64,000 nt of DNA, from the IMG/VR virus record IMGVR_UViG_3300031953_000001; one strand, 5' to 3'. A program made the position numbers and the translations under genes. The first letter of the stretch is position 1. The number at the start of each line of letters is the position of its first letter. This stretch comes from a virus. Its lineage: Duplodnaviria > Caudoviricetes. Shown piece after piece: positions 19,066-63,973 of the stretch. Below the pieces are notes generated by a model. It saw only the letters and a program-made list of their open reading frames with translations. It had not been told where the DNA came from and did not search any database.

Positions 19066-19138
19066 ACCCTATTCCTATTTAAGAACATACATACCAAACG
19101 GCATAAGGGACGGCCGAAGCCGCCCTTAAGAATACTGG

Positions 19139-20413
19139 TTACTTTTCGTAGTTGGCCAGGCCTCGTTCGCAGTACTCAATCATCGCTCGACTGGTCTGGA
19201 AGATGTAGCCGTACGCTTCAATGATGTTGTCCAGGAGGTACTCCATCCACACGGTGACGTTGTTACCGAAGTAATTGCCGATCATCACCTCAGCAATATC
19301 GATTAGGCCTTCTTTACCGTTGAAGATTTTACCCACCGGCAGCTTTTGTTGAATCAGTGGCAGATTGCCTTTGGCCTTGGACATCTCACTGGCGTCGGTA
19401 AGAAGGACTTCACCTTTATCCACCATGTCTTCCAATGAGGATACCGAGGCCTTAGCGAATGCAACCAAGGTTCGCATCTGATCCATCGTGGGGGCGGTTA
19501 CCTGGTCCTTCTCACGATACGTGCCGAAGGCATTGGCGTTGAACACCGAGATCTGAGTCAAAGGCACATCCCGAGACGACATGGCGATGGTGAATTGAGT
19601 CAGCTTGGCGGTCTTCATCATTTGTCCACCCGGCAGAACGGTGCCGTCCAGACCCTTAACCGCTGAGATATACCCTTCGATTTCTTTCTCAATGGCTACT
19701 TTAGAAGACGTCTGAAGCTTTACAATCTGGTCTTTCTCAGTCTTAGCGTTGAATTTAAAGATCTCTTTCTGAGTGGTCTCGATCCGATCCAACAGACCGC
19801 GTCCAAATTGGGTGGTTTCTGCAACAAACGCCGTGGTGGCTTCGATGGACTTGGCGTAGTTATCAACCAGGTCCTTAGGTTCCATGCTGGTTTTGATGTG
19901 CAGCCGAGAGCCACCGGCCACTTTGATGGTGTCTTTAATAGGAACGGCTTTTCGATCTATGTCGTCTAAGCCCCTGAGAACGTCTTCAGCACGTTTTTCC
20001 AATCCTTCGTACGACCCAGTAATGCTTGTAGTAAAGTCCTTCCAGCCGCGCTGTATGCGCCCACCAGCGTTCAACGTGGCCCGTCCGATCCGTTTGACCA
20101 GATTGATCATGCCTTCTTGAGAGAACTCGGCTTCGACGGCAAACTCAGCGCCAAAGAAATTCTCCAAGGTCAAACGATAGCTTGCTTCAAGACCGTCGAT
20201 TGATCCGTTGCTTTCCAAGGTGGCGGCGTACAGATTTGAGAAAGCTTCGATCGATTGTTGGGCGCGGGTTAGACTCTCCATCTGAAGCGTCGCTAACCTA
20301 ACCTCGTTGCCAGCTTCAATCACCCGCTCAGCGGCGCGTTCGCCTGAGATGCGGTCTTCCAGAGTCATCGCAATGTGAGGCTCTGGGCGAAACAGTTCTG
20401 CGGCTAATCGCAT
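19139..20413 (-). CDS. phiKZ-type internal head (inner-body family) protein
   Basis: AAGGA SD before ATG 20413; acidic propeptide with TLE/GLE/SQE sites, then a helical domain; late promoter at 20450-20457. Confidence 0.65.
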   Translation of the reverse strand: MRLAAELFRPEPHIAMTLEDRISGERAAERVIEAGNEVRLATLQMESLTRAQQSIEAFSNLYAATLESNGSIDGLEASYRLTLENFFGAEFAVEAEFSQEGMINLVKRIGRATLNAGGRIQRGWKDFTTSITGSYEGLEKRAEDVLRGLDDIDRKAVPIKDTIKVAGGSRLHIKTSMEPKDLVDNYAKSIEATTAFVAETTQFGRGLLDRIETTQKEIFKFNAKTEKDQIVKLQTSSKVAIEKEIEGYISAVKGLDGTVLPGGQMMKTAKLTQFTIAMSSRDVPLTQISVFNANAFGTYREKDQVTAPTMDQMRTLVAFAKASVSSLEDMVDKGEVLLTDASEMSKAKGNLPLIQQKLPVGKIFNGKEGLIDIAEVMIGNYFGNNVTVWMEYLLDNIIEAYGYIFQTSRAMIEYCERGLANYEK

Positions 20414-25405: not shown

Positions 25406-25696
25406 ATGGCTACTATTACTGATCTGGACGCAAAACGCGTTGAAATGAATAATGCGATCGATGCGTACAAGCAAGCAATCCTGGATTACCAGGCATCGAC
25501 TATTACTCTGGCACAACTGAATGCAGCTAAAGACGCCGCCAGCAGTAAAGCCGATGAGTTCGGCAAATTGGCCGGTCAAGTGAAGAAAGACAATCCTGGT
25601 ACGCCTACTGCGGATTTCTTTTCAAACTCAACCGTTCAAACCCAGGCACGGATCGATCACGTTGCAACGACCATGACCAATGGCCCAGCGGTTTAG
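25406..25696 (+). CDS. small helical late protein, domain X copy 1
   Basis: GGAG SD; homologous to 62834..63115 and to the N-terminus of 53468..54682. Confidence 0.8.
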   Translation: MATITDLDAKRVEMNNAIDAYKQAILDYQASTITLAQLNAAKDAASSKADEFGKLAGQVKKDNPGTPTADFFSNSTVQTQARIDHVATTMTNGPAV

Positions 25697-49978: not shown

Positions 49979-51232
49979 ATGGACCTGAAAACACACGCTT
50001 TTTTCGTTGAAGTCGCCGCTGGTGCCACTATGTATCGTCGTCCTCTGGTTATTAACGATGGCGTGGTAACCATCGCCGAAGAGCATGGTGGCGCCGTCGA
50101 AGTCCCCGAGGCAAAGAACGGGAAGCGGATGGTAATGCATTTGGTCGCCGAACGATCTACACCAGACGGGCAGAGGTACATTCAGGTATTAACCGGTTAC
50201 ACCGATCGCGGTGTTGAAAAATCGCACGTCCTGGACCCAGAAACAAAGATTTACTTCAACCGGTTGGTGTCTGCCAGCGGAATAGGTCAAGCGCTGAGCG
50301 CGCGTTGGACCGGGCAGATATTCACACCTAATTCTCCTATGGGCTCTGGAATGCCAATGCGAAGATTGGCCCCAGAAGACATCGTAGGAGAATTGGCATT
50401 TCAAAGAGAGTTCCACTTCGAAAGTGGGATTGAGGATGCGAGATCGTACATTTACGGACTTAAACTGACCGACGCTGCCTTTCTAGAACCGACGACGTAT
50501 CTGTCCAAAATACAGGAGACATACACCCGCACACTGTCTGAGTGGGAGGAGAGCTCTCTATTTGATGACAACGATGACCGGCCCCTCGACGTGTGTTTGA
50601 ATCGACTGAAGTCTATGCCAATGGCTTGCAGTCCGATCTTGGCGAGAATACGGATGATGAATGACCATCTACTCAACAACTACATCACGTACGAGCAATT
50701 TAATCAATTAGTTGACGACAAAGACGTGGTGGTGGTTTTGCAGTCCGATACCGAGAAAAACAATCCTGCACCATCACATGACTGGAACAACAACGACCTG
50801 GAAACATTGGTCTGCGCCCGGCTGGAAGCAGAGCTGCCGACGGTGATGATTAACCGGGGAGTCGTCCAATGGGGGTTTAGCATTGTGTTTGATGGAGTAG
50901 GCTCTAGCGTCAAGTTCTACGCTTTAGATACGGAATTGACAACGGAACACCCACCCACCCTGATATCCGAACTCGAACGGCGAGTGATCGACATACTGAC
51001 ACCGTATATGGATGAGTTGAGTACCCTCGAGGTTACCGGCGCCAATATCCATAACAGTCGATATGTCATCACGTCAAATACGGGGAAACCTCGCACCTAC
51101 ATCGCACCTACGTATATGAATTCCATGTACAGTAGCTACTTGTCATCAGACTCAAAACACTTTGTGAAACTCGCCAAGACGGTGGAGGACTCCTTGGTGA
51201 ATCTTGGATTGGATGTCGTCACTAAGCACTGA
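49979..51232 (+). CDS. divergent homolog of the phage-nucleus import factor PicA/Imp1 (phiKZ gp69)
   Basis: Collinear motifs matching my recollection of gp69-family proteins: YRRP, GYTD.G....LDP....YFN, PEDI, W...D....A.....P.VM, E.ERR...IL and APT..S.... Confidence 0.6.
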   Translation: MDLKTHAFFVEVAAGATMYRRPLVINDGVVTIAEEHGGAVEVPEAKNGKRMVMHLVAERSTPDGQRYIQVLTGYTDRGVEKSHVLDPETKIYFNRLVSASGIGQALSARWTGQIFTPNSPMGSGMPMRRLAPEDIVGELAFQREFHFESGIEDARSYIYGLKLTDAAFLEPTTYLSKIQETYTRTLSEWEESSLFDDNDDRPLDVCLNRLKSMPMACSPILARIRMMNDHLLNNYITYEQFNQLVDDKDVVVVLQSDTEKNNPAPSHDWNNNDLETLVCARLEAELPTVMINRGVVQWGFSIVFDGVGSSVKFYALDTELTTEHPPTLISELERRVIDILTPYMDELSTLEVTGANIHNSRYVITSNTGKPRTYIAPTYMNSMYSSYLSSDSKHFVKLAKTVEDSLVNLGLDVVTKH

Positions 51233-51297: not shown

Positions 51298-51333
51298 ATA
51301 AGAGGAGGGCGCTTGCCCTCCTCTTATTTTTTG
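51298..51333. terminator. bidirectional terminator between convergent operons
   Basis: AATAAGAGGAGGGC-GCTT-GCCCTCCTCTTATT, with A-run before and T-run after. Confidence 0.85.
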
Positions 51334-51334
51334 T

Positions 51335-51565
51335 CTAAAGGGTAGGATCGATGCGCACGTCGTACGCGGCACCGCGTTTGAGAGGCACCGCCTCACCCGA
51401 GTAAACCACCCCACACCACAAAGGTCCAGAGAAATAAAGAATACTGGGTACCGACTTAGGGTCCATGTTCGCTAACCCACACAGGGCCGCGTACGCCATC
51501 TCTCGACGGTTGTCAACCACGACGTCTGTGCCGTTCACGGTAATAGCAACGGTATTTTTTGTCAC
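51335..51565 (-). CDS. ubiquitin-like beta-grasp protein (multiubiquitin-domain-like)
   Basis: VAITVNG...MAY..L..LA...I.Y.SGP...G.V..GE.V.LK.G..YDV pattern; last gene after the endolysin. Confidence 0.55.
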   Translation of the reverse strand: MTKNTVAITVNGTDVVVDNRREMAYAALCGLANMDPKSVPSILYFSGPLWCGVVYSGEAVPLKRGAAYDVRIDPTL

Positions 51566-51568
51566 AAG

Positions 51569-52372
51569 TTAGACCGTCGTCTGACGCGCGTACGCTTCAG
51601 CCATTTTTTCATCGTACTTGTTCTTTTTGTAAGACGGTCCGTTGTAGATGCGTGCAAACGTTGCCCAGTCTTTTTGTTCTAACGCGCGGTGTAGCCGTGG
51701 GTCCGCGGCGATAAACCGTACAAAGGCATACAGTTGATGGGCTTCGTCGATGCACATCTTCGACATAAAGTCGTCCACTGAAGCGTAGTTGAGATACTTC
51801 CAGTGAAAACCCATGATCTGATATCGTCCGTACGATGCACTTTCTTTGGCAGCTGGGGTGTTCAACTCCATAGCTTTGCGCAGACGAGTCCATTCGTGCT
51901 TGCCCCCACGGTAACCGCCCCAACCGGTGTTGACCAAATCAGGACGTGCCGCTCGACCCAACTCCGCTGCCAGAGGTAACTTGGCCTCAAGCAGACGACG
52001 GTTCATGATGTGGCGCTCAAACAAGATTTTCGGCAGACCCGCTTCTAAGAAACCACCGCCTTGACTTTCCACCTCAGACACCGCCTTGATGGCCGCTACC
52101 TCTACACTCAACATTTCCGCAGCCCGCATCACGTCTTTCTCGGTCAACTGCCAATCGTCGACGCGGTTGTCGTTCAACTCTTCCCAGGTTCGCTTACCGG
52201 CTACGCCGTCGGCCAACAGTCCCGCTTTTGTTTGAAACGCCACTAAGGCCCGGTGGGTACCTGGCCCAAAGGCCCCGTCATCGGGTGGATTAAGGTGACC
52301 TTTATCGATCAACAGGCGCTGCAGCTGTGCCACTGCCTGGCCCCGAGAACCCAACTTTATCAATTTACTCAT
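51569..52372 (-). CDS. modular endolysin: PG-binding domain plus DUF3380-type muramidase
   Basis: LGSRG.AV.QLQ..L...DG.FG..T..A...FQ...GL.ADG.AG..TW, then AV.EVES, PKILFERH, SYG.YQIMGF and FAR.YNG..Y..N.YD.KM motifs. Confidence 0.92.
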   Translation of the reverse strand: MSKLIKLGSRGQAVAQLQRLLIDKGHLNPPDDGAFGPGTHRALVAFQTKAGLLADGVAGKRTWEELNDNRVDDWQLTEKDVMRAAEMLSVEVAAIKAVSEVESQGGGFLEAGLPKILFERHIMNRRLLEAKLPLAAELGRAARPDLVNTGWGGYRGGKHEWTRLRKAMELNTPAAKESASYGRYQIMGFHWKYLNYASVDDFMSKMCIDEAHQLYAFVRFIAADPRLHRALEQKDWATFARIYNGPSYKKNKYDEKMAEAYARQTTV

Positions 52373-52391
52373 GTTGTGCACCTTTTATTAA

Positions 52392-53429
52392 TTAATCGGC
52401 CGCTGTGCAACCCGTTGGAACCGTAATGAGCATATCAGTATCGCCAATGATGCTGGCGGTACTTACAATGTCCACGTCAGAGAGGACAGTTCCTTTTACT
52501 CGCGAGACGTCCAAGGTAATAACACCTGCCTGACTGCGCGCGTTGTTGCCAATCGACGTATTGATCGCGTTAATCGCACCGGCGGCGCTACTGATGACGC
52601 TGCCCTTAACCAATACCCCGTTCAAGGTAGTGACGCCACCACTGATGATGTCCTTACCAACCGTGCTGCCAGTGCCAATGTTGATCGCACCGCTGCCGGT
52701 GGAAACTGAGCCTCCCACAGTAACGTTGTTGGTCAGACCTACAACGCCCGCGCCGGTACTGACAACGCTACCACACAACCAACTTCGGTCGCCTATGGTG
52801 ATGCCGCCAGCGGTGGTGGCGATACCGCCGCCAAGGACGACGTCCGTTAATAAGGTAACCACCCCATCGGTGGATGACACCTCACCGTCCACCGTGCTTC
52901 TCACCCCTAAATTAATCCCGCCGGCTTGGGTGCTGACATCCCCCCCGACTCGACTTTTATACTCCAAGGTTATTACACCGGTAGAGGCACTGGTGCTGAT
53001 GTTCCCAGACAGTCTACTTTCACTGGCTAAATTAACGGTCCCCACCCCGACTACGTTGGCGTTCATTATTGAATTTGCACCCAACACAAACGCCGCGTTG
53101 GTAATCAACGTAAGGTCCTCGGACGGTTTTCCAGCGTTGATCAGATTGCCCGTCCCGGTGGTGAAGGTTCCGGAAAAGGTAATCGTAACCGGAGTCACAC
53201 CGCCCAGAGCGATGGTGTCGCCTGCAACCAACTCCAACGCACTGCATCCGTAGGAGCGCGCCCCGGCATCGATGAGACTACAGCCTATGGGTAGCGTGTC
53301 TCCATTGGAAGAAAACGTGTAATTAGTGGCGGCTTGAACAAGATTGCTTAACAGCAACCCTACCACCAGCAGCGTCTGACACAAGAGTTGTATCGGCGTA
53401 TACCGACGGTGGGGGCTTTGGTGTTTCAT
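52392..53429 (-). CDS. secreted beta-helix protein resembling the N-terminus of MshQ/DUF6701-type pilus-associated adhesins
   Basis: Sec signal ending VQA; ATNYTF...LP.GCS...Y.C.AL.L..GDTI; repeated G.V.T..G.I.L/IG units. Confidence 0.55.
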   Translation of the reverse strand: MKHQSPHRRYTPIQLLCQTLLVVGLLLSNLVQAATNYTFSSNGDTLPIGCSLIDAGARSYGCSALELVAGDTIALGGVTPVTITFSGTFTTGTGNLINAGKPSEDLTLITNAAFVLGANSIMNANVVGVGTVNLASESRLSGNISTSASTGVITLEYKSRVGGDVSTQAGGINLGVRSTVDGEVSSTDGVVTLLTDVVLGGGIATTAGGITIGDRSWLCGSVVSTGAGVVGLTNNVTVGGSVSTGSGAINIGTGSTVGKDIISGGVTTLNGVLVKGSVISSAAGAINAINTSIGNNARSQAGVITLDVSRVKGTVLSDVDIVSTASIIGDTDMLITVPTGCTAAD

Positions 53430-53467
53430 TGTGGTGTTTCCTGGTGATGGGTTAATAGCTTAGTGCA

Positions 53468-54682
53468 TTAAAAGTTAGGTAAATAGTTGGTTTGGATGTT
53501 GCTGTCGAAACTGAAACCGCCAAAGAGAGTTACTTGACTCACAGTCCAACCGCTGAGGTCCTGATTGAAGGCCCCCGCAAAACTGAACATGGAACTCATG
53601 TTGGTCACCTTACTCACATCCCACTGACTCAAAGGTCGGTTGAAGGCGCCAGCTCGATAGAACATAGAACCCATGTCCACCACGTTGCCTACCCCCCAAT
53701 CGTTCAAAGGAAGGTTAAACGCCGTCGCTCTAAAGAACATGGCGTTCATGTTGGTGACGCTGCTGACATCCCAGCTGTTGAGCGGTTGATTAAATGATTC
53801 GGCCCCAGAGAACATCTGCATTGTGGTCTCAACACCGCTGACATCCCAAGCCTCCAGCGGCTGGTTGTAGCTTACGGCTCGGTTAAACATGGCCGTCATA
53901 TCCACCACACCGCTGACGTTCCATTGGTTAAGCGGTAGATTAAAGGCCGCGGCCTCTCGGAACATGTGTGAGGTGTCGATCACATTACTCATGTCCCAGT
54001 GGCTAATATTGCTGTTGAAGTCAGCTGCCCCGTAAAACATATACCGACACGACGTCCCAGGGAGAAAGGCCGGACTGTCAGCGTCGTTGATCACAAACCC
54101 GGTCCGGTTTTGGAACATACGTTCGCCTGAGGCAAACGTAGTTAGTCCCCACCGCCATATATTTTTCCACTGTTTCTGATGTTCTGGTAACGGTGCGGTA
54201 AACCCGGCGATGGCGCCTAACACATGAACGTCGTATATCCCAGGGACCGCGTAAGTGTGACTGATGCCCCGGGTGGTTGTTACATACCCAGAGCCATCGC
54301 CCCAGTCGATGGTGACGTCACTGCCGGCGGCAAAGGGTAAGGCCACGTCGGCGGCGCCTGCCGTGTCACCTTCGGTGTCGATCAATATATGCGTACCGTC
54401 CCGGATCGGATGTCCCCGCATTAAGATAACGGCGATCTCATCGCGAACCGACTCACCCATAAACAGAGGTTGGCTGAACAGCTGATCGATGTCGGTGATT
54501 GTAGGGTCGTCTCGTTTGACTTGAAAGACCAGTCTTGCGTACTCATCGCCTTTGATTTGAGCCGTGGATTTGGCGCTGAGGAGATCCCATGGAGTGACCT
54601 CTGATAACACCGCTTGCCGGTAAGCTTCGGTGGCGTTGTACAGCTCATTGCGTTTGGCATAAAGATCGTCGAGGATAGCCAT
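53468..54682 (-). CDS. domain X + PKD-like + DUF285/BspA-like 25-residue repeat surface protein
   Basis: N-terminal domain X; IDWGDG..HTY..PG.Y.V; seven MF..A..FNQPL..WDVS.V..M repeats. Confidence 0.85.
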   Translation of the reverse strand: MAILDDLYAKRNELYNATEAYRQAVLSEVTPWDLLSAKSTAQIKGDEYARLVFQVKRDDPTITDIDQLFSQPLFMGESVRDEIAVILMRGHPIRDGTHILIDTEGDTAGAADVALPFAAGSDVTIDWGDGSGYVTTTRGISHTYAVPGIYDVHVLGAIAGFTAPLPEHQKQWKNIWRWGLTTFASGERMFQNRTGFVINDADSPAFLPGTSCRYMFYGAADFNSNISHWDMSNVIDTSHMFREAAAFNLPLNQWNVSGVVDMTAMFNRAVSYNQPLEAWDVSGVETTMQMFSGAESFNQPLNSWDVSSVTNMNAMFFRATAFNLPLNDWGVGNVVDMGSMFYRAGAFNRPLSQWDVSKVTNMSSMFSFAGAFNQDLSGWTVSQVTLFGGFSFDSNIQTNYLPNF

Positions 54683-54734
54683 ATCTGAGTCTCAAGGAAA
54701 GGCGAACGTACGGTACAACGACCCACCCCGATCG

Positions 54735-55520
54735 TTATTTACGAAACAACGTCTCACCTAACCATCCAATGGGGTCTATGCGGTGGAAACGTACTTGATT
54801 TGGGTGTCGATGATGTTCTTCGTGCCAGCAGTCACCGAGAATAAAGGGAAACATCCATAAACTGCTGTGGGCGCGGTCGTGATCGTTGCCCCAACCGTGG
54901 CCCCAGGTGTTGGCTAACGATTGCAGTTGCCACACCAGAGCCGGTGGCGCCCAGACTAGAGCCAAGGCCCAGTCCAACGGCAGCAGCCAGAGACTGCCTA
55001 ACAACACCGATCCGTAGATCTTCCAGTAGTGTCTGTGAAACCCCACATGCCAGGTATCTCGCAACAAACGCCCGGCATGCCGGCCGCTGACCTCTCGAAA
55101 GGTGTACCCTAACAGCTGAATGGCCAGCCAATGACTCTGAGCTGGACTATGAGGGTCCTTAGGGGTCCCCTGGTGCTTGTGATGGGCATTGTGAGTGGCA
55201 ACCCACCCCAACGTACTGCCTTGAAGTGAAAGCCCTCCCAGAAGAGTTAGAATCACCTCTACGGATCGGGGTACAGTTACGGTCTTGTGCGTCAGCACTC
55301 GATGGTACATAAAACTGATCCCCAGTTGTGAGATCAGGTACGCCATCCCTAGGGCCAGTAACAGAGCGCCACCGGCACCAGAAAAGACCAATGTCAAAAC
55401 GACAGCGTGTGACGCGATGATCACGCTGTAATGCAAGACTCGGTTCAGAGGTACGATTTCTACATTGATCGCGCGCAGTCGGTCCATGGTACTTCCTTTT
55501 AAGTCAATAAGAACGTTCAA
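54735..55520 (-). CDS. membrane fatty-acid desaturase (Delta9-like), copy 1
   Basis: His boxes YHRVLTH, HNAHH and WHEEHH; DPHS; hydrophobic helices. Confidence 0.88.
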   Translation of the reverse strand: MNVLIDLKGSTMDRLRAINVEIVPLNRVLHYSVIIASHAVVLTLVFSGAGGALLLALGMAYLISQLGISFMYHRVLTHKTVTVPRSVEVILTLLGGLSLQGSTLGWVATHNAHHKHQGTPKDPHSPAQSHWLAIQLLGYTFREVSGRHAGRLLRDTWHVGFHRHYWKIYGSVLLGSLWLLPLDWALALVWAPPALVWQLQSLANTWGHGWGNDHDRAHSSLWMFPFILGDCWHEEHHRHPNQVRFHRIDPIGWLGETLFRK

Positions 55521-56416
55521 AGCGTCTCTATGTCAAAGGCATTGAAGAAGGCTTCATCCAAGTGACCATACCGATCGTTCCAGCGTCGGGTGTTTTCTTT
55601 TACCGCTTGGTAGAAGGGGTCGCTCAAATGAGACTTCACCTCAAACGCCCTGTTCAGGTAACGGCGAAACGGGATTTGCAAGAACACTCGGTCGGTGGTG
55701 AGGTTTGGGGTCCATGGGTAGATGGGACCTGCAAAGTTGGCGACAGCGGCTTCTCTTAATCGGACATGATGTCTAAGGCACATCGAGTAGGTCAAACGAT
55801 CCACCACGCTGACTTCGGGTTTGATCACAAAATTGCCTGGCAATAACCCTTTCTTTAGCGGGGCGGCTAACCGATTAATGAAGTGTTTGTAATGCCCTCG
55901 GTCTGGGTTGTCTTGGGCTAAGTAACGTGCGTCCAGATCAGCCCAGTCTGGGTTTGATCGTAATCGGGCCAAGTTGAACACCGCCAGTCCCAACGTGAAA
56001 TAACTCTTAGATCGCACCAGACGATCGGGGTGATGTGGATCGAATCTCACATACAGGTCGTTCATTGAGGACAACTCAAACGGACGGTCGGGTCGAACAA
56101 CCACGTCTTGACCGCTCAGATCGGCGTGACTCACCTCAGCGATGGGTCGGTTACACACACTGTGACTGCTCACCAAACACACCCGGTCTTCGGTGCTGTG
56201 CTCAAGTAACGTAGACAGAACCGCCACCGGGTCAGCACGGTGGATCTGAACGTACTCAAGGGTGTCGGCAAATGCCGCTTCCAATCGCCTGAGAGCCAAT
56301 ACATCGTCGCTGTAGACTCGGCACCGCCAAGTCGGGTTCTTCAGTTTAAAACTGTGAATCGCCACTATGGCCTGATCGACTTTTTCCCATGGCACCACAA
56401 AAGCAGCAAAGGCCAT
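55517..56416 (-). CDS. glycosyltransferase family 8-like protein lacking the DxD motif
   Basis: YFTLGLAVFNLARLR resembles GT8 YFNAGV...NL..WR; NFAGPIYPW resembles HF.G..KPW; DxD position reads VSSHS. Confidence 0.55.
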   Translation of the reverse strand: MAFAAFVVPWEKVDQAIVAIHSFKLKNPTWRCRVYSDDVLALRRLEAAFADTLEYVQIHRADPVAVLSTLLEHSTEDRVCLVSSHSVCNRPIAEVSHADLSGQDVVVRPDRPFELSSMNDLYVRFDPHHPDRLVRSKSYFTLGLAVFNLARLRSNPDWADLDARYLAQDNPDRGHYKHFINRLAAPLKKGLLPGNFVIKPEVSVVDRLTYSMCLRHHVRLREAAVANFAGPIYPWTPNLTTDRVFLQIPFRRYLNRAFEVKSHLSDPFYQAVKENTRRWNDRYGHLDEAFFNAFDIETL

Positions 56417-56426
56417 GACGGTCTCC

Positions 56427-56951
56427 TTATGCGTTTAAGAAATCGATTTCCAAGGCCGCCATGACCCCGCCATTGGGACCTGCGGTGACCGTAATCTCAC
56501 TGCCTGATAGTCGAACGATCTGCATGTCGTTCACGGGCGTGTCATTAAGAGACACTTCCCCCAACACCGGCGCCAGGTACCCAGGAAAGCCTACCGACAT
56601 CGTCTCATTAGGTCCTAAGACCAAACGGTGGGGTTTGATCACCCGGTGGTTTGGGTTGGTGGTGTTCAGACAGATGCCGATGGTCTCTTCCAGCGCAGTG
56701 ACCTTAGTCCAATACGGATTGCCTTTCTGTGCAATGTCGTCGTGGGCGGTCAGTTGGTATTCGTTGAACGTGTTTTGACTTAAGGTACTGCCTTTGACCA
56801 AGAACCGACTTTCCACCACCGGTATAAAATCGTCGGTGTACTTTTCTTCCCAGTGGGGTTTCTTCCCCAGAATGAAAGACTCGTCTTTGTCAACGTAGAA
56901 CTTAGCCACCGCCACACCTTCGTGACGCAAGCGATTAACCCGTGTGCGCAT
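56427..56951 (-). CDS. hypothetical protein, beta-rich
   Basis: Coupled within the operon; no motif recognised. Confidence 0.65.
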   Translation of the reverse strand: MRTRVNRLRHEGVAVAKFYVDKDESFILGKKPHWEEKYTDDFIPVVESRFLVKGSTLSQNTFNEYQLTAHDDIAQKGNPYWTKVTALEETIGICLNTTNPNHRVIKPHRLVLGPNETMSVGFPGYLAPVLGEVSLNDTPVNDMQIVRLSGSEITVTAGPNGGVMAALEIDFLNA

Positions 56952-56953
56952 GA

Positions 56954-57259
56954 TTAAAACTCCAGAGGTTGGTCTTGGGTGTGGACATCGCCGTCATCGT
57001 AATGCACGTACAGGGCGTCTGGGGTCGATCCGACCCGCTGTTCAATAAGTTCGCGGAGTTGTGAAGATAATGCCAACTCAGCAGGCAACTCAGGCCGCAG
57101 CTCTTCGATCAACTCTCGCATACGAATGAGAGGCAAGTTAGGGTCGTCAACTATGGCTTGAGGCAACGGGTGGCTATGCACCACCCACCCCCAATCGACT
57201 AACGCAGTCTTATCGACCAGATCAATGGCTTTGACTACAAAGGACATCACGTTCTCCAT
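56954..57259 (-). CDS. hypothetical protein
   Basis: ATG at 57259 overlaps the upstream TGA (TGATG coupling). Confidence 0.65.
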   Translation of the reverse strand: MENVMSFVVKAIDLVDKTALVDWGWVVHSHPLPQAIVDDPNLPLIRMRELIEELRPELPAELALSSQLRELIEQRVGSTPDALYVHYDDGDVHTQDQPLEF

Positions 57260-58116
57260 CAGAGTTGTTTGGGGTAGGTACGTTGGTGCTCTAACGCGAT
57301 GAGGGACAGCGTCTTCTCCATCCGCTCTGAACTGTCGTCTACCCAACAAACCCCACTGTAAGGGCTGGCTAGGAAACGCCTCAGCGCGATGTGTGGGTTG
57401 GTCTGTGAAAACACCGCCTTGTATATTTGTCGGTAGATGTTTCGGGCACAGGTGGGGTCCGTGCTGTCTACTAACTTCACGACCTTACCCAACAGTAACC
57501 CCAACAACCCCATTTCGGAGGCAGAGGTGGTGTATACGGTCTCAGCCCGACGTAAGTAATCGAACCCACTCAAAGTGGCAGGTAACACCGCCCCTGGAAA
57601 ACTGTCGTTCAACTTTTTCAACCAAGCCCCGTTAGTGATGGGATGGGGTTTGATCTTACTGCCCCGCCGATACAGCTGGAACACCCTGACCCAATCGACG
57701 TTGTGTTCCAACAAGTTGGTGCCCGGTAGAAACACCACCGATGGGATGGTGGTTTTGTCCAACTGACGAGTGAGTCGATACTTATCCAACCGCATCCCCA
57801 ACAGACGTTGTTCCACATCGATAGGTTCAGCATCGGTGTCGCTGACCGCCGAGATTGCCATACCGTACCGAAGTCTATCGTCGCAGGGGGTGATCATGAT
57901 GGCTCGGGTAAAGAGTTCGGTGTAATGTAAGGATTTGAATTCAGGATCGGGGGTGTAATAAATGTCGTACAACACTTCTTTGGTTGTCAGCGACTCTAAC
58001 CGTTGTCCTAAGACGTCCAATTGACTCAAAGCCGCCACTCGACCTAAAGGGCCGGATTTGAAGACCTGAGTCACCGCTGAGTCTATACGGTCCTCAGTAA
58101 ACGACCGTCGGGTCAT
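57259..58116 (-). CDS. KpsS/capsule-synthesis-like GT-B glycosyltransferase
   Basis: VFLPG, IKPHP and V.TT.SE.GLLGLLLGK.V match the Capsule_synth-type KPHP and T..S..G.EA.L.GK.V motifs. Confidence 0.6.
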   Translation of the reverse strand: MTRRSFTEDRIDSAVTQVFKSGPLGRVAALSQLDVLGQRLESLTTKEVLYDIYYTPDPEFKSLHYTELFTRAIMITPCDDRLRYGMAISAVSDTDAEPIDVEQRLLGMRLDKYRLTRQLDKTTIPSVVFLPGTNLLEHNVDWVRVFQLYRRGSKIKPHPITNGAWLKKLNDSFPGAVLPATLSGFDYLRRAETVYTTSASEMGLLGLLLGKVVKLVDSTDPTCARNIYRQIYKAVFSQTNPHIALRRFLASPYSGVCWVDDSSERMEKTLSLIALEHQRTYPKQL

Positions 58117-58343
58117 ACGGCGCCGTCCAACCGTTTGGCCAAGATCTCGTCTACTCGGGACTGCACCCGATCGTCAACCACGGCGTTGATGTTGGTTTCA
58201 AACTCGTCCATAATCGCCGCTACCCGATCGTCAAACCGAGTGATGTGTTCCAATAACGCCTCGGCTAAGGTCTCAATGCGCAGGCGCGCAGCGTCCAGTT
58301 CGGCTAAGGTGACGGCTTTATCGGCTACGGTTGCTTCAGTCAT
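58113..58343 (-). CDS. small coiled-coil protein
   Basis: Heptad pattern; ATGA overlap with the next gene. Confidence 0.7.
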   Translation of the reverse strand: MTEATVADKAVTLAELDAARLRIETLAEALLEHITRFDDRVAAIMDEFETNINAVVDDRVQSRVDEILAKRLDGAV

Positions 58344-58357
58344 AAAATATTCCTTGC

Positions 58358-58870
58358 TCAGTATAGCTGTAGTGCGATGATGGCGGTGTTGGCTGAGGTG
58401 GTGTACTCAGTGGTTCGACTGCCGGCCAAGGTGGTGGTGTTTCGGGTTAAGGTGGTGTTTCTTGCTGTGACGTGCGATGTGGTGCGGGACGCAAAGACGG
58501 CGGTGGTGACCGAAGTACTCAATGTCTTCCCGCCGGTGTCTGGTATCTCCGTAATGCGCGAGGTGGTGCGAGACCCAGACTGATACGTAGTTGCGTACGA
58601 GGTGTTGAAACTCGTTGACGCTATCCAGGACGTTAAGGTCGTGGTGGAGGCGTCTGTGGTACGAGTGGCCGTGGCTGTGGTCACTCGGGTGGTGGACACC
58701 GACCGCGAGTAAGTCACGTTTAACATGTCGCTCAGACGAAACGGTGGCGTGAGCGGCATGCTTGGAAAGCCTCGACCCAGCAGGTTGGACATGCGATTGT
58801 CGGGGAGCGTGTTTTGAAATTCGGTGATCACGTCCGAGAATCGTAGCGGTGGACTGCCTTGTAATGCCAT
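58358..58870 (-). CDS. Ser/Thr-rich tail-tip adhesin-like protein
   Basis: N-terminal MALQGSPPLRFSDVITEF...RLSDM resembles fibre-tip anchor domains; about half of the last 110 residues are S/T. Confidence 0.6.
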   Translation of the reverse strand: MALQGSPPLRFSDVITEFQNTLPDNRMSNLLGRGFPSMPLTPPFRLSDMLNVTYSRSVSTTRVTTATATRTTDASTTTLTSWIASTSFNTSYATTYQSGSRTTSRITEIPDTGGKTLSTSVTTAVFASRTTSHVTARNTTLTRNTTTLAGSRTTEYTTSANTAIIALQLY

Positions 58871-58873
58871 AGG

Positions 58874-59620
58874 TTACTCCTTTTTAATCAGACGAATAAA
58901 CCAGGCGGCAAAGTCCCATTCCCACCAGCGTTCTTGGGTGTTCCAATGTCCCGGGTGGGCGTGATGGTTGTTGTGCCATCCATCCCCAGCGGTTAATACG
59001 TTCATCAGCCAACTGTTACGACTGCGGTCGGGCGTCTCGTGGTTGCGGTAACCCCAACCATGGCCGAGGGTGTTGAACACTCCTTTCAGATGAAACAACA
59101 GAGCCGTAGGAAGACACCAGCCGTAGACCAGCAGTTTCCAGTCGATCAAACTCAACCCCAAGGCGTAAATCAGCAGAATGAGAACGTAGTAGTCGTGTGT
59201 GATCTGATAGAACCGTTGTTTACGTTCGGTTCGAATGGCGCGATGGTCCAAGACCCAAGGTCGATCCAGCCAATCTCCAAACCAAGCGTCGATAAGGCCG
59301 TGTTGGTGTTGGCTGTGTGGGTCTCTGGGGCGATCTGAAAAGCCGTGATGGGTTCGGTGTACCAATGCGTTTGTCAATGGCGAGCCTAATGCAGTCAAGA
59401 TCCCCACGCCCGTGAGTGCAAGCTCAATGGGTTTATAGGTTTCAAACGACCTGTGCGCCAACAATCGATGATACCCCACGGTGATGCCAAAGAACCCATA
59501 GGCGTAATAGATAGCTAATGTAAACCCAAGCCAGCCCCACCAGCCGAGATAGATCGCCAGAGGCAGAAACACACACAACACCAGTTGGTTGCAGATTTGA
59601 AGGTGTTTTAGATACGTCAT
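58874..59620 (-). CDS. membrane fatty-acid desaturase (Delta9-like), copy 2
   Basis: GYHRLLAHRSF, HRTHH, DPHS, NTLGH, GYRN..T.D.SRN and WHNNHH. Confidence 0.92.
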   Translation of the reverse strand: MTYLKHLQICNQLVLCVFLPLAIYLGWWGWLGFTLAIYYAYGFFGITVGYHRLLAHRSFETYKPIELALTGVGILTALGSPLTNALVHRTHHGFSDRPRDPHSQHQHGLIDAWFGDWLDRPWVLDHRAIRTERKQRFYQITHDYYVLILLIYALGLSLIDWKLLVYGWCLPTALLFHLKGVFNTLGHGWGYRNHETPDRSRNSWLMNVLTAGDGWHNNHHAHPGHWNTQERWWEWDFAAWFIRLIKKE

Positions 59621-59700
59621 GGTTTACTCGCTCAATCGGAGTGGGTTCACTCTATTAGAGATCGCTGTCAAAGAACAGACATCCATGTCCTAATGAAACC

Positions 59701-61923
59701 TCAACGGCGATTAAGTCGGTCCGACAACTTGACGGTCAGCTCTTGAACGGTGACCTCCAGCCAAGCGACGCGGCGGTTGCTGATGTCCAACTCTCTCGCC
59801 ATCTGTTTGATGGAGTGTTGCGCCAGGGCGTGAAAGTCGTTGTACGACAACCCCTCGTAACCGTCGTCTTTCTGTCTTACCAAGTCAGGGAAGAACGCTT
59901 TAACGTCTGTGGTCAGAAACCCGTAGTGGGTTTGATTTGAGACGTCTTCAGTTAGGCGATACGAGTAGGGTCTCAGTTCCAGATAGTTATACAACGCGTT
60001 ATCCAGAGCTTTCACGTCTTCCTTCAATCGAGGATCGGAGGTGTAGACCACATCGCCGGCGTACAGATCGCCGGTGACCGTAAGATCGCCGGTGACCGTA
60101 TCGCCACCCGCTTTACCGACGTACCGAGCGTCGTGATCGCCCGACACGCGGTGATCGTTCATACCCTTGGCTTGCAATACCGTGTCCGTGTCGACGGACG
60201 TTCGCAGCGCGGTGGTGGGCAAGTTCGGCTCTGCGTTGGCGGCAACGGTGTCGAGTTTGACGACGTTGGCCGACGCCATCAATCCGGCTGCTGAAACGCT
60301 GGCCAGAGGGAAGGCGACGCCATCTCCCGTAGACGACACCAAGGTAGGGGCTTCTGCCGTGCCGCCCACACTGAGGTCCGTGGCTACGTTGACCTGCGCT
60401 CCCGATTGAACGCTGGCCAGTTTACTGTGGTCGTTGATGCTCATGAACCCGGCAGCCGTATCCGTTGCCACAGGAATGGCCACGTTGTTGCCCGTGCTGC
60501 TTACCAAGGTTCGAGTGTCGCCCGCACCGGTCAAGGTCAGATCCGTACCCACATTGACTTGAGCACCGGAACTCACCCCATCCAACTTCACTTTATCGCT
60601 GGCGGACATGACGCCGGCGTTGGTGACACTTACCCCAGGAATGGCGACATTGTTGCCGTAGCTGTTGGTGATCGTGATACTGGTGGCGGTTTGCGTGAGC
60701 GCCAAGTTACTGGGTACATTGACCTGGGCGCCTGTCTCTACCCCCCCGAGTTTGGTGAACTGCGCCATGGACATCAACCCGGCCGTGCTGGCTGAGGCTG
60801 TCGGTAAGACCACGTTACTACCGGTGGACGAGGTGACACCGCGAGCATCGCCGGTCCCACTCAACCCGAGGTTGGTGCCCACGTTGACTTGTGCGCCAAT
60901 CGCCACACCGGCCAATTTGGTTTTCTCAGTCGAACTGTAATCTTCGCTCGATAGCCCTTTGCCAGCGACGGTGTTCACTTTGGTGAGCAGCGCCGTGTCC
61001 ACTTGAAGTTGAGTGTAATAACGCCCGTCGTGGTCGTCGGACGCGACGTGATCTACCATTCCTTTGGCCGTCAGCACCGTACCTGTCTCATTCAACGTTC
61101 GTGACGAGGTGGTGGGCAAGTTCACTTCCGCCGCGGTTTGGATGTTGGCCAATTTGGTAAACTGACTTGGCGCCATCAACCCAACCTTGGACGCATCGGC
61201 CACCACCAAATCAACTCCGGTACCACCACTGTTCTCTATGCGGTAGGTTGTACCCCCACGAGTGAACGTCAAGTTCACCGCAACGTTCTGCTCAGCGCCG
61301 GCTTCAATGCCGGTTAATTTACTCAACCAGGCATCGGTGAAGTCATTTGCACTTAAGGCTTTGCCCGTGACTTTATCGACTTTGGTACCCAAGGCTGACT
61401 GCAACCCGGCGATCGAATCGATGCTCAAGTTCTCCAACGAGTCTCGATTGAGCTTGATGTAATCCACAATCTCTTGGATCTGATCCAGAGTGGTGTCGTC
61501 GCTGCCAATCAAGGCGTTGATGGCGTCCACCGCGTCTTTCAGTACCTTACCTTGCGCCGCACTCAACACCTCACTGGGGGCGTTGCTGGTCAGCGTATCG
61601 GCGATGTTGGCGATGTCAATTTTCAACGCCAAGGCCGCATCCATTTCCGTTTCGGTGTAGTAACGCCCGTCGTGGTCGTCGGACGCGACGTGATCTACCA
61701 TCCCTTTGGCGGTTAACAAGACCCCGGTGCTATTGACCGTGCGTTCGATGGTGATGGCGTTCGGAATCTGGTCCAACCCGACCTGTACTTTGGTCACTGA
61801 GTGGGGATTATCGTCTCGTGCAATGTGCGTGTCCGTGTTCTCAAAGAGAATGTCGATCTTTCCCTTGAGGGTTTCGAACATACGCTTGACCGCTGCGGTT
61901 AGCTGGTCGGTTGGTTTGGTCAT
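59701..61923 (-). CDS. tail fibre with a C-terminal intramolecular chaperone (Peptidase_S74)
   Basis: NPHSVTKVQVGL start, KL.G...GAQVN repeats, SDPRLKED..L...YGF..DV...FPDLV. Confidence 0.88.
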   Translation of the reverse strand: MTKPTDQLTAAVKRMFETLKGKIDILFENTDTHIARDDNPHSVTKVQVGLDQIPNAITIERTVNSTGVLLTAKGMVDHVASDDHDGRYYTETEMDAALALKIDIANIADTLTSNAPSEVLSAAQGKVLKDAVDAINALIGSDDTTLDQIQEIVDYIKLNRDSLENLSIDSIAGLQSALGTKVDKVTGKALSANDFTDAWLSKLTGIEAGAEQNVAVNLTFTRGGTTYRIENSGGTGVDLVVADASKVGLMAPSQFTKLANIQTAAEVNLPTTSSRTLNETGTVLTAKGMVDHVASDDHDGRYYTQLQVDTALLTKVNTVAGKGLSSEDYSSTEKTKLAGVAIGAQVNVGTNLGLSGTGDARGVTSSTGSNVVLPTASASTAGLMSMAQFTKLGGVETGAQVNVPSNLALTQTATSITITNSYGNNVAIPGVSVTNAGVMSASDKVKLDGVSSGAQVNVGTDLTLTGAGDTRTLVSSTGNNVAIPVATDTAAGFMSINDHSKLASVQSGAQVNVATDLSVGGTAEAPTLVSSTGDGVAFPLASVSAAGLMASANVVKLDTVAANAEPNLPTTALRTSVDTDTVLQAKGMNDHRVSGDHDARYVGKAGGDTVTGDLTVTGDLYAGDVVYTSDPRLKEDVKALDNALYNYLELRPYSYRLTEDVSNQTHYGFLTTDVKAFFPDLVRQKDDGYEGLSYNDFHALAQHSIKQMARELDISNRRVAWLEVTVQELTVKLSDRLNRR
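61019..61701. repeat. 41-bp exact direct repeat inside the tail fibre gene (61019-61059 and 61661-61701)
   Basis: TAACGCCCGTCGTGGTCGTCGGACGCGACGTGATCTACCAT occurs twice, encoding MVDHVASDDHDGRY. Confidence 0.95.
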
Positions 61924-62002
61924 ACCGGATTCCCCGTACTAGGCAAAATAAGACGAAGGCGTCCTCGCAAAAGGCGCCCTCGTCGATGATTCGGTTAGGA
62001 TC

Positions 62003-62461
62003 TTACGATGACGTGGAGCTGATCGTTAACAGTGGCATGCACAACCACAAGCGACTGGGAGACATGGGCAGATCGGGCCAGGACAAAGTAGACCCCCCTA
62101 TCGTAAGCGCGGTGGCCACAAAGGTTGCCGGGTTCCAGCCCTCTAAAGTGCGTGGGGTACCGATGGGCATCCATTGAGGTTTGTCGTACGCAGGTTTGGT
62201 TATCTGCGTTCTTACGAATCGGGACATGGCCTCAGAATCGGTCACCCGCACCACCACCAAACTTCGGTCTGGGTACCGGTCTTCGAACGTTGTCTTAGTT
62301 CTAAACACCACCCCCGAGTCGACGTCTACCTCAGCGATGTAGGAGTTCAACTCCAACGCCACGTGATCCCAATAGGTTTGGGTAACAAGACGACGCACCG
62401 AGGCCGTCTTGCCAGGTCTGCGAGCAAACCAGACCTTTACCCATTTATTTTTTGGTCGCAT
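62003..62461 (-). CDS. permuted papain-like (YiiX/NlpC-P60-like) protein lacking the catalytic Cys
   Basis: WDHVAL His motif and K..YD retained; WFCSELVA position reads WNPATFVA. Confidence 0.5.
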   Translation of the reverse strand: MRPKNKWVKVWFARRPGKTASVRRLVTQTYWDHVALELNSYIAEVDVDSGVVFRTKTTFEDRYPDRSLVVVRVTDSEAMSRFVRTQITKPAYDKPQWMPIGTPRTLEGWNPATFVATALTIGGSTLSWPDLPMSPSRLWLCMPLLTISSTSS

Positions 62462-62714
62462 CGATGACTTTCACCACATCGCTCAGAGACAAGCCCGTCC
62501 ACTGACCGTAGACTTGAGTCAACGTCTCTACGTCCTTGGTGTTGTACAGCGCGCTTTCAATCAACTTAACCAGAAGATCGTCGATGGAGTTGTCGGTCTT
62601 CTTAGACAGCAAGACCAACTTGGTGATGATGATGCGTTTGACGGCGTCGGTACCCAGCAGACTGAGTAGAATCTCACCGAGTTTGCTCAGCATCAAAGTC
62701 ATAGTGGTTTTCAT
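62445..62714 (-). CDS. small late protein
   Basis: AGGAG SD before ATG 62714; KKTDNSIDD motif; late promoter upstream. Confidence 0.65.
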   Translation of the reverse strand: MKTTMTLMLSKLGEILLSLLGTDAVKRIIITKLVLLSKKTDNSIDDLLVKLIESALYNTKDVETLTQVYGQWTGLSLSDVVKVIDATKK

Positions 62715-62747
62715 AGGTCTTCTCCTAACGGTTAAACTAAGTGTGGT

Positions 62748-62755
62748 CATACCAT
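62748..62755 (-). promoter_or_regulatory. putative late promoter ATGGTATG driving the tail fibre operon
   Basis: CATACCAT on +, downstream of the hairpin at 62787-62817. Confidence 0.6.
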
Positions 62756-62786
62756 TTCAAGAAGATGAGCCCGATCCTTAAAGCGG

Positions 62787-62822
62787 AATAAGAGGAGACC
62801 TGTTGGTCTCCTCTTTGTTTTA
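62787..62822. terminator. terminator hairpin
   Basis: ATAAGAGGAGACC-TGTT-GGTCTCCTCTT. Confidence 0.75.
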
Positions 62823-62833
62823 TGCTCACATTG

Positions 62834-63115
62834 TCAACGGGTACGTATAATAGCGGCTACATCATCCCGCCGAAGAGACGACATTAAGTCTGGGTTGCTG
62901 AACAAAACGTCGTCTATTAAAGTGGGGTTGTCTTTCTTCACCCGCCCCATTAACTTTGCGTATTCAACGACGGTCACTCGCGCAGCTTTACGAGAAGCGG
63001 TAACCTCAAACTGTGTGGTGCGTTTGTGGTTAAACTCCTCAACCGTGCGTTTGTAATCATCGATCGCCGCATTTAACTCCGCGCGCTTTACGTTTAAATC
63101 TGTAACTGTAACCAT
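62834..63115 (-). CDS. small helical protein, domain X copy 3
   Basis: Homologous to 25406..25696. Confidence 0.8.
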   Translation of the reverse strand: MVTVTDLNVKRAELNAAIDDYKRTVEEFNHKRTTQFEVTASRKAARVTVVEYAKLMGRVKKDNPTLIDDVLFSNPDLMSSLRRDDVAAIIRTR

Positions 63116-63124
63116 GACTGTGTC

Positions 63125-63973
63125 TCATATAGAGTCGAGGGAGGGATATCCTTCTCTCTTATCGACGTGTCGCATCAAATGGTGAGTCGATGGGTTTATC
63201 GGCGATGGGTGAGCGCCTTCGTTTGAGCGTTTACGAATGATCCGAATGATCCACGCGGGTAAGTCGAACTCCCACCATCGGACCTGGTTATTCCAATGTT
63301 GCGGATTGTGATGGTGGTTGTTGTGCCAGCCTTCCCCTAAGAACAACCAAGCCACCATCGGTGAATTGCGACTGTCGTCGTCGGTGTTGTAATTACGGTA
63401 ACCGACCGTGTGGGTCCAAGCCAAAGCGAACTTGAACACATACAGAATGATCGTGGCCGGCATGGCAAACGCAAAGACCACCAACCGCCAATCGATCGCC
63501 AGTAAGACCAAACACCAAACTCCCAAGATCGTGAAGTAGTGATTGTGACAAAACACGATGTCTTTCTGACGCAGCAGGTCTTTAGCTATTCTAGGCGACA
63601 GCTTTACCTCCGGCCAGTGCCCAAACCACACCCTAAAGAACCCCTGCACTTTGGGGCTGTGTGGGTCGGATGTGGTGTCTGCCTTGGCGTGATGGGTACG
63701 GTGCACGATCGTCCAGTTGATCGGAGAACCAAACCCCATCAACATCCCGACAAAGAGCAAAACGTAACGAATGGGGGTGTAGGTCTCAAATGACCTGTGG
63801 GCAACGTATCGGTGGTACCCCAAGGAGTTACCGAACAGACTGAGGACGTAGTACATCCCCAAGGCCACCAACAACCACTCGTATTGTTCGCTGTACATCA
63901 CGTATCCTAACCCCACCGCGGTTAACAGGTGATTGCCGCGGTTTAACCACAGTAGTTTGTGGTTATGGCTCAT
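63125..63973 (-). CDS. membrane fatty-acid desaturase (Delta9-like), copy 3
   Basis: GGAGG SD; GYHRYVAHRSF, HRTHH, DPHS, GYRN..T.D.SRN and WHNNHH. Confidence 0.92.
   Translation of the reverse strand: MSHNHKLLWLNRGNHLLTAVGLGYVMYSEQYEWLLVALGMYYVLSLFGNSLGYHRYVAHRSFETYTPIRYVLLFVGMLMGFGSPINWTIVHRTHHAKADTTSDPHSPKVQGFFRVWFGHWPEVKLSPRIAKDLLRQKDIVFCHNHYFTILGVWCLVLLAIDWRLVVFAFAMPATIILYVFKFALAWTHTVGYRNYNTDDDSRNSPMVAWLFLGEGWHNNHHHNPQHWNNQVRWWEFDLPAWIIRIIRKRSNEGAHPSPINPSTHHLMRHVDKREGYPSLDSI

Follow-up and report, generated by a model that had tools for sequence, protein, structure and literature searches.

We analysed a stretch of 64,000 nucleotides (the window) that is the minus strand of positions 110133-174132 in virus record IMGVR_UViG_3300031953_000001, a 222,493-bp phage genome with direct terminal repeats (G000). 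Positions below are those of the window unless G000 is named. An earlier note had read 17 co-directional minus-strand genes at 51335-63973 as a single late tail-fibre system, and all 17 open reading frames (ORFs) were found in place. We found that this block is a composite of separable parts, an accessory region beside tail-fibre genes. Its conserved unit consists of three genes, encoding a Thr-rich protein, a small coiled-coil protein and a KpsS-like transferase, and this unit recurs in unrelated phages. We give about an even chance to the reading that the cassette glycosylates the Thr-rich protein, which is probably fibre-associated because it is encoded directly behind the tail-fibre gene. 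These three genes and the GT8-like gene of the block are as follows.

58358..58870, minus strand: Thr/Ser-rich repeat protein, 170 amino acids (aa), proposed acceptor of the modification
58113..58343, minus strand: small coiled-coil protein, 76 aa, in which an L-E-H motif is conserved
57259..58116, minus strand: KpsS/KpsC-like transferase, 285 aa, with the predicted fold of a retaining glycosyltransferase for beta-linked 3-deoxy-D-manno-oct-2-ulosonic acid (beta-Kdo)
55517..56416, minus strand: GT8-like (putative GT-A fold) protein, 299 aa, recognised by Atlas and remote profile likeness

We found relatives by way of the KpsS-like and GT8-like proteins; the contigs compared with G000 carry L-numbers. 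The gene orders are given below, with the identity of the KpsS-like protein in brackets.

L020 (71%): 152-aa protein, tail fibre, Thr-rich, coiled coil, KpsS-like, 97-aa protein, 174-aa protein, GT8-like, desaturase Des5, endolysin, Multi_ubiq
L023 (50%): two 2OG-Fe(II) oxygenases (2OG), 174-aa protein, ketosynthase (KAS), desaturases Des1-4, small gene, tail fibre, Thr-rich, coiled coil, KpsS-like, GT8-like, Des5, endolysin
L029 (52%): tail fibre, Thr-rich (246 aa, 50% Ser+Thr), coiled coil, KpsS-like, GT8-like, Des5, endolysin
L025 and L030 (43%): Thr-rich, coiled coil, KpsS-like, GT8-like (22%), then a radical SAM gene

The order of the Thr-rich, coiled-coil, KpsS-like and GT8-like genes was constant in G000, L020, L023, L029, L025 and L030, and the flanks differed in L025 and L030. 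In G000, L020, L023 and L029 the tail-fibre gene adjoins the Thr-rich, coiled-coil and KpsS-like genes. The three-gene unit is also present in Vibrio phage KVP40 (T4-like), where 0254 encodes a Thr-rich protein (197 aa, 49% Ser+Thr) and is followed by the coiled-coil gene 0255 and the KpsS-like gene 0256; KVP40.0254 has the same N-terminal double motif as the G000 protein, with TSRST/TTSW repeats. The T7-like Caulobacter phage BL198 has the same arrangement minus the coiled-coil gene, with a tail fibre (gp045), a protein of 39% Ser+Thr (gp046) and a KpsS-like protein (gp047). The earlier note had proposed looking in other phages for linkage of the Ser/Thr-rich gene with the KPHP transferase, GT8-like and desaturase genes. 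The Thr-rich and KPHP transferase genes were linked in six contigs of the lineage (43-71%), in KVP40 and in BL198, whereas the GT8-like gene was linked only in the jumbo lineage and Des5 only in the clade of at least 50% identity.

Other members of the block come and go. Neither L018 nor L020, the closest relative, has Des4 between the fibre and Thr-rich genes, and in L023 its ortholog precedes the fibre gene. Des4 and the 174-aa gene stand on the opposite side in L023 relative to G000. The DUF285 gene and the 345-aa 'MshQ-like' gene were not found in L020 or L023. No desaturase lies within 20 kb in L025, and the cassette occurs without a neighbouring desaturase in the 43% clade (L025 and L030), KVP40 and BL198. 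Because gene content and position vary among relatives in this way, and because the DUF285 gene belongs to a set of seven scattered paralogs, the 17 genes are several separable parts and not one pathway.

The Thr-rich protein deserves its label, since its 38% Ser+Thr is the maximum of the proteome (median 12.6%). A conserved N-terminal double motif is followed by [ST]R[TN]T[ST] quasi-repeats. Homologs were identified in L020, L023, L029, L025 and L030 and as KVP40.0254 and BL198 gp046; they came via synteny, and a word-based protein search with the Thr-rich protein gave no match. Like the gp38-type adhesins of T-even phages, it is encoded by a small gene right after a long tail-fibre gene and has low-complexity repeats. 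Unlike them, its repeats are rich in Thr, Arg and aromatic residues instead of forming Gly-rich loops, and there was no sequence match or reliable fold match. Its structural neighbours in the Atlas, including a gp38 cluster at a template modelling (TM) score of 0.44, were discarded, the predicted local distance difference test (pLDDT) of the model being 0.43. In the 43% clade (L025:9199-9786, L030:1-240) the Thr-rich protein has a Cys-rich C-terminal tail (…SACACCNAC…), and in both contigs the gene right after the GT8-like one encodes a radical SAM protein; the two features hint at an extra modification of the radical SAM type on this Thr-rich protein. The coiled-coil protein has homologs of 55-80 aa whose genes immediately precede that of the KpsS-like protein in L020, L023, L029, L030, L025, L031 and KVP40.

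The label KpsS-like held at the level of the fold. The AlphaFold2 (AF2) model had a pLDDT of 88, and the top 17 PDB matches in Foldseek were all WbbB or KpsC, which are retaining beta-Kdo transferases (E 1.6e-5). Superposition gave a VIA Z of 10.6-11.2 over 215-224 residues, covering both domains, at a root-mean-square deviation of about 4 A. Generic GT-B matches scored lower and were confined to the C-terminal domain. Furthermore, hhalign against KpsC-N, KpsC-C and KpsS of E. coli CFT073 gave 88% probability (E 3e-6) and aligned LDKYRL with LSKYNL, KPHP with KPHP and P-G-T-N-L-L-E with P-G-Q-V-E-D-D. K156, H158 and P159 were invariant among 17 KpsS-like sequences (HP motif). The protein thus shares with KpsC/KpsS (GT107), WbbB (GT99) and KrkA a two-domain fold, the HP motif, a 'SKYNL'-like motif and a P-G before the catalytic helix. 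It differs from the GT107 and GT99 enzymes in being shorter (about 280 aa), in lacking a Pfam Capsule_synth match and in reading T-N-L-L-E for QxxxD. Its gene is phage-borne and adjoins the Thr-rich gene, whereas GT107 and GT99 genes adjoin capsule or O-antigen export genes. For its acceptor we propose a protein, in contrast to the lipid-linked glycan of those enzymes. A scan of IMG/VR with the KpsS-like protein gave no match.

The label GT8-like stood in part. Likeness of fold and remote profile was seen, with Atlas features of 0.96 and a structure TM of 0.67-0.73 against GT8 clusters and a weak hhalign match to E. coli WaaJ/WaaO (probability 58%, E 1e-4), whereas the catalytic motifs are missing. 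The protein probably shares a GT-A-like fold with GT8 enzymes of the LgtC, WaaJ/WaaO and glycogenin type, and its YF(N/T)xG and GxxxPW segments are collinear with theirs; it differs in having no DxD, no metal-binding His and no match to PF01501. Judged by its sequence, it is not a canonical GT8. A PDB sequence search with the protein returned chance matches only. Nothing was found with the protein in IMG/VR or with the GT8-like alignment in IMG/VR and the JGI metagenomes.

Building on the folds, motifs and linkage described above, the donor, acceptor, timing and place in the virion would be as follows. Late in infection, the KpsS-like enzyme would take a host ulosonic acid activated by cytidine monophosphate (CMP), most simply CMP-Kdo, and attach the sugar to hydroxyl groups of the Thr-rich protein or to a primer sugar that it carries. 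In this, the coiled-coil protein may help as adaptor or chaperone. For the GT8-like protein of this lineage two roles could be considered, a second transferase that needs no metal or a partner without catalytic activity. KdsA and KdsB were looked for in the phage and not found, so CMP-Kdo would have to be supplied by the host; synthesis of CMP-Kdo by the phage was rejected for the same reason. Glycosylation of DNA by the transferases was also rejected, as DNA-modification genes are absent from the vicinity and the partner that stays constant is the Thr-rich protein.

Several observations weigh against glycosylation of the Thr-rich protein. Its Atlas model is of low confidence, and therefore a fibre structure remains only putative. 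In Stenotrophomonas phage DLP_6 and L031 we saw no Thr-rich ORF immediately upstream. Neither transferase-like protein was recognised by any Pfam model: there was no match of the KpsS-like protein to Capsule_synth (PF05159) at E up to 10, nor of the GT8-like protein to PF01501. KpsS-like proteins have T or S where QxxxD has Gln (here T133-N-L-L-E137), and the nucleophile position is E or D in 13 of the 17 homologs and K, S or G in the other four. The DxD of GT8 enzymes is replaced by S-S-H in the GT8-like protein and by S-A-N, D-P-R, S-P-N, S-A-N and S-S-N in its homologs, and the metal-binding His of HxxGxxKPW is Asn, Ser or Val, with only P-W kept. Because DxD and the metal-binding His are missing in all six homologs, the GT8-like protein may be inactive. 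Finally, bona fide KpsS has a lipid, phosphatidylglycerol, as its acceptor, and in four contigs (G000, L020, L023 and L029) the gene after the GT8-like gene is Des5, so that a lipid acceptor is possible.

These points bear on two other explanations. The KpsS-like and GT8-like proteins might act on a glycolipid of the host envelope, such as the lipopolysaccharide (LPS) core or the phosphatidylglycerol-Kdo linker of the capsule, for example as a late receptor change, with the Thr-rich protein an unrelated fibre accessory. All solved relatives of the KpsS-like protein (KpsC, KpsS, WbbB and KrkA, of GT99 and GT107) work on lipid-linked glycans, the GT8 relatives WaaJ and WaaO build the LPS core, and a membrane desaturase gene adjoins. 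However, across jumbo, T4-like and T7-like phages only the Thr-rich and coiled-coil genes stay with the enzyme, not membrane or export genes, and on a reading of the sequences the phage enzymes are short and have no obvious membrane anchor; we consider action on a host glycolipid unlikely. The loss of motif residues raises the further idea that both transferase-like proteins have given up catalysis and serve as chaperones or structural partners in assembly of the Thr-rich fibre protein. It would account for the S-S-H at DxD and the Asn at the position of the metal-binding His in the GT8-like protein, and for the T at the Gln of QxxxD and the acidic residue that is not invariant in the KpsS-like protein. 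That idea appears quite improbable in view of the HP motif, the S-E-x-G motif and K156, which are invariant in the 17 sequences down to 25% identity, as expected of an intact nucleotide-sugar pocket.

If glycosylation of the Thr-rich protein is accepted, the closest known system is the glycosylation of mycobacteriophage virions, reportedly described by Freeman et al. in 2023 (Cell Host Microbe). There, as here, phage glycosyltransferase genes adjoin structural genes and a phage structural protein is the proposed target. The present case differs in its enzyme families, in a dedicated Thr-rich target behind the tail fibre, in its Gram-negative hosts and in being known from genes alone. The Thr-rich/KpsS-like cassette appears undescribed in the literature searched and would be best classed as a variant of phage virion glycosylation. 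We advance only tentatively, and doubt somewhat, the stronger proposal that the KpsS-like protein is the first protein-directed member of the beta-Kdo fold and that at least three unrelated phage families coat a Thr-rich fibre protein with acidic sugars from host CMP-Kdo or a related CMP-ulosonic acid; it would imply a widespread, undescribed virion O-glycosylation among phages of Gram-negative bacteria.

The lipid genes of the block form another part, and their history depends on the identity of the phage. Zhong et al. 2023 reported a complete 222-kb phage from cryopeg brine, vOTU43_CB18_222366, and a 230-kb sister, both with fatty acid desaturases and both with Pseudomonas as the predicted host. 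G000 is almost certainly vOTU43_CB18_222366, a jumbo phage. Nearly all sequencing runs that contain the block are labelled 'brine metagenome'. The major head protein of G000 (720 aa) matched phrog_3231, a large family (E 5e-170), a match that would fit a phiKZ-type jumbo phage. The desaturases of the window are the following.

63125..63973, minus strand: desaturase Des3, 282 aa, Pfam FA_desaturase E 1e-15, with a 1:1 ortholog (54%) in L023
58874..59620, minus strand: desaturase Des4, 248 aa, Pfam E 1e-15, variable in position
54735..55520, minus strand: desaturase Des5, 261 aa (Met12 may be the start), Pfam E 1e-10, the most divergent copy

Des3, Des4 and Des5 scored 58.7, 58.4 and 41.8 bits against PF00487 (cut-off 29.7; E 1e-10 to 1e-16). 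The block continues in the same direction past the end of the window (L006, G000 96000-112000), where it contains two desaturases, a FabF/FabB-like ketosynthase, two 2OG oxygenases and at least five radical SAM genes; tail-fibre genes flank this set on both sides in L006. Des3, the first desaturase of the block, is therefore the third of a tandem trio, since two further desaturases lie upstream, beyond the window. G000 has exactly five FA_desaturase genes. The His boxes HxxxxH, HxxHH and HxxHH are intact in all five, Des3, Des4 and Des5 included, and the third box of Des5 differs among orthologs (HEEHH, HASHH and HRRHH). The five are only 21-42% identical to one another, and each has a 1:1 ortholog at 54-77% in the 78.6-kb contig L023. 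Against the bacterial DesA equivalog (NCBIfam NF049918) the desaturases reached 29-86 bits, with a cut-off of 400, over profile positions 5-232 of 385 only. Des3-Des5 are membrane fatty acid desaturases by family, with an activity predicted from sequence. Pairs resembling Des2 and Des3, tandem or divergent (34-50% identity), occur in eight IMG/VR contigs (L007-L014) in which the other genes are unrelated and a distant 2OG oxygenase lies near the pair; the pair has the look of an independent mobile unit.

Five desaturase copies in each of the two cryopeg viruses have been published as auxiliary metabolic genes (AMGs) for membrane fluidity, transcribed at a low level only, with head genes high (PMC7300359, PMC10405475). 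Given that G000 has exactly five FA_desaturase genes, as published, the desaturase part is already known, and the three desaturases of the block belong to the published five-copy set of viral fatty acid desaturases (vFAD). The earlier note, in naming no described pathway for this gene set, missed these two papers. Like the desaturase AMGs of cyanophages (PMC5776448) and the cryopeg vFAD, these are short delta-9/DesC-type enzymes with three His boxes. Unlike here, the linked ketosynthase, 2OG and radical SAM genes and the transferase cassette are not discussed in the cryopeg vFAD papers (PMC7300359, PMC10405475). Text searches for glycosyltransferases in both papers were empty, as was a text search of the 2023 paper for radical SAM.

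What the lipid genes do bears on two further explanations. The desaturases and the ketosynthase outside the window most likely act on membrane acyl chains and not on the adhesin, for whose lipid modification, suggested in the earlier note, no evidence was found. A separate question is whether the desaturases, acting with the KAS, the 2OG oxygenases and the radical SAM enzymes encoded upstream, make a specialised lipid or fatty-acid product beyond membrane fluidity. The preservation of each of five paralogs so unlike one another as a 1:1 ortholog is in its favour, as are the linkage of desaturases to a FabF/FabB-like KAS in G000, L023 and L028 and the presence of 2OG and radical SAM genes within the same co-directional block. 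An acyl carrier protein gene was looked for in the phage and not found, every copy has His boxes of the delta-9 type (also PMC7300359), and tandem desaturase pairs occur elsewhere without KAS; such a product is possible, and we are inclined to doubt it. As to all 17 genes forming one late pathway, for glycosylation plus lipid modification of the Ser/Thr-rich adhesin or for joint remodelling of the envelope, the genes are co-directional and closely packed, and Des5 follows the GT8-like gene in the four contigs named above. In addition, the bicupin-like 174-aa gene and Des4 shift between the lipid half and the transferase half among relatives, and desaturase/KAS sets lie next to S74 tail-fibre genes in L028. 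A single pathway is nevertheless very improbable: Des4 and the DUF285 and 'MshQ-like' genes vary between relatives, the Thr-rich/KpsS-like cassette has no nearby desaturase in L025, L030, KVP40 or BL198, and the tandem desaturase pairs in IMG/VR contigs are without cassette genes. Moreover, the block is split by internal hairpins, and the published transcript coverage is low for desaturases versus high for head genes.

Between the KpsS-like and GT8-like genes lie two further genes.

56954..57247, minus strand: 97-aa protein (the ORF can be called to 57349), with a 65% ortholog in L020
56427..56951, minus strand: bicupin-like protein, 174 aa, without a conserved metal-binding His

The AF2 model of the bicupin-like protein had a pLDDT of 94 and matched YhaK, pirin, BacB and HutD in Foldseek (E 1e-4, TM about 0.55). 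Its relatives numbered only 9 among 1.84 billion representatives. The 97-aa gene pairs with the bicupin-like gene in L020 and L028 too. The bicupin-like gene adjoins 2OG/KAS genes in L023 and desaturase/KAS genes in L028; in L028 it stands with the 97-aa gene next to desaturases and KAS, after an S74 tail fibre.

The remaining genes of the block are listed below.

62834..63115, minus strand: stand-alone 'domain X' protein X93, 93 aa, like the N-terminus of the DUF285 protein
62445..62750, minus strand: small protein, 101 aa (an internal Met at 62714 is possible), phrog_2738 E 1e-9, conserved in L020
62003..62461, minus strand: 152-aa protein, with a 57% ortholog in L020
59701..61923, minus strand: tail fibre, 740 aa, Pfam Peptidase_S74 E 4e-11 and Phage_fiber_rpt E 5e-10, with matches to tail-fibre PHROGs
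53468..54682, minus strand: X-PKD-DUF285 repeat protein, 404 aa, Pfam DUF285 E 2e-99 and a weak PKD match
52392..53429, minus strand: 345-aa repeat protein (Gly/Ser/Thr/Val) that has a hydrophobic leader at its N-terminus
51569..52381, minus strand: endolysin with a peptidoglycan-binding domain and an N-acetylmuramidase domain, Pfam E 8e-63 and 7e-15
51335..51565, minus strand: Multiubiquitin-like protein, 76 aa, Pfam Multi_ubiq E 7e-4

Pfam bore out the names given earlier to the three desaturases, the tail fibre, the DUF285 protein and the endolysin. Family matches did not bear out 'papain-like' (62003..62461) and 'MshQ-like' (52392..53429), as neither protein matched Pfam, NCBIfam or PHROG even at E up to 10; ten unassigned proteins compared with Pfam at E up to 10 gave nothing usable. 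For 'ubiquitin-like', the Multi_ubiq match was seen and is weak, its score falling below the cut-off. Megablast of the block against the INPHARED phages gave no match. The intramolecular chaperone domain of the tail fibre (endosialidase-type, Peptidase_S74) spans aa 629-683 and scored 43.6 bits against a cut-off of 22, and the fibre has orthologs in L020 (68%) and L023 (47%). The endolysin has orthologs at 66-67% in L020 and L023, and Multi_ubiq homologs follow it in both, with two copies in L023 (14203-14678). The last genes of the block serve lysis.

The 'domain X' of the earlier note is real: X93 is 35% identical to the N-terminus of the DUF285 protein (E 2e-15). This domain of about 90 aa heads nine scattered genes, seven with the architecture X-PKD-DUF285 (BspA-like repeat) and two with X alone. 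They lie at 62834-63115, 53468-54682 and 25406-25696 in the window and at 18832-20043, 64940-66097, 66174-67253, 70564-72093, 86172-87326 and 197033-198187 in G000. Domain X looks like a common anchoring or targeting module of a multigene family. In three independent runs, one of them RNA, contigs part from the window sequence at 54300 and 54334, where domain X of the DUF285 gene has just ended, which suggests strain variants with the C-terminal part of the protein swapped. The DUF285 gene and the 345-aa leader-bearing repeat gene are strain-specific insertions.

The junctions of the block were tight for the most part, as the earlier note had claimed, with 11 of 16 overlapping or at most 15 nt long; the other five measure 38-83 nt and lie after X93, on both sides of the tail fibre and on both sides of the DUF285 gene. 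Two hairpins are of particular note.

62790-62815, no strand: palindromic hairpin with an 11-bp stem between X93 and the small-protein gene, terminator-like, with a possible transcript start after it
51300-51325, no strand: terminal hairpin with an 11-bp stem, then ATTTTG, as read from the sequence

The terminal hairpin is likely, from its sequence and position, to be a bidirectional terminator at the end of the block, facing a convergent plus-strand gene that ends at 51232. That gene (49979-51232, plus strand, 417 aa) had earlier been labelled PicA/Imp1-like; it had no Pfam match, and tblastn in 50,697 phage records (INPHARED) was without match. The hairpins at 51300-51325, 61950-61968 and 62790-62815 have AAGAGGAG…CTCCTCTT-type stems in common, or ATT(T)TGC directly after, and such hairpins at the borders of transcription units may be a phage-specific terminator or punctuation motif. 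Scans for sigma-70 promoters and terminators were no better than chance. The whole block was covered by metatranscriptome contigs identical to the window, in which carried-over DNA and RNA are indistinguishable and a ranking of genes is impossible. One of these contigs (61672-62723) had a depth of 44, versus 7-15 in neighbouring contigs, and breaks off into Illumina adapter at 62723, immediately downstream of the hairpin. It hints, weakly, that a transcript has its 5' end near 62723, after the hairpin; if that start is real, the small gene begins at the internal Met (62714).

The result for the desaturases is a correction: they should be interpreted alongside the neighbouring KAS, 2OG and radical SAM genes and not alongside the adhesin. 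If glycosylation of the Thr-rich protein is true, phages of Gram-negative bacteria, including the KVP40 group, would carry a system for virion glycosylation that uses a fold previously recorded only in enzymes of capsule and O-antigen synthesis. It would also give a function to the widespread 'hypothetical' phage family phrog_26179 and would be relevant to adsorption, host range, phage stability and the immune recognition of therapeutic phages.

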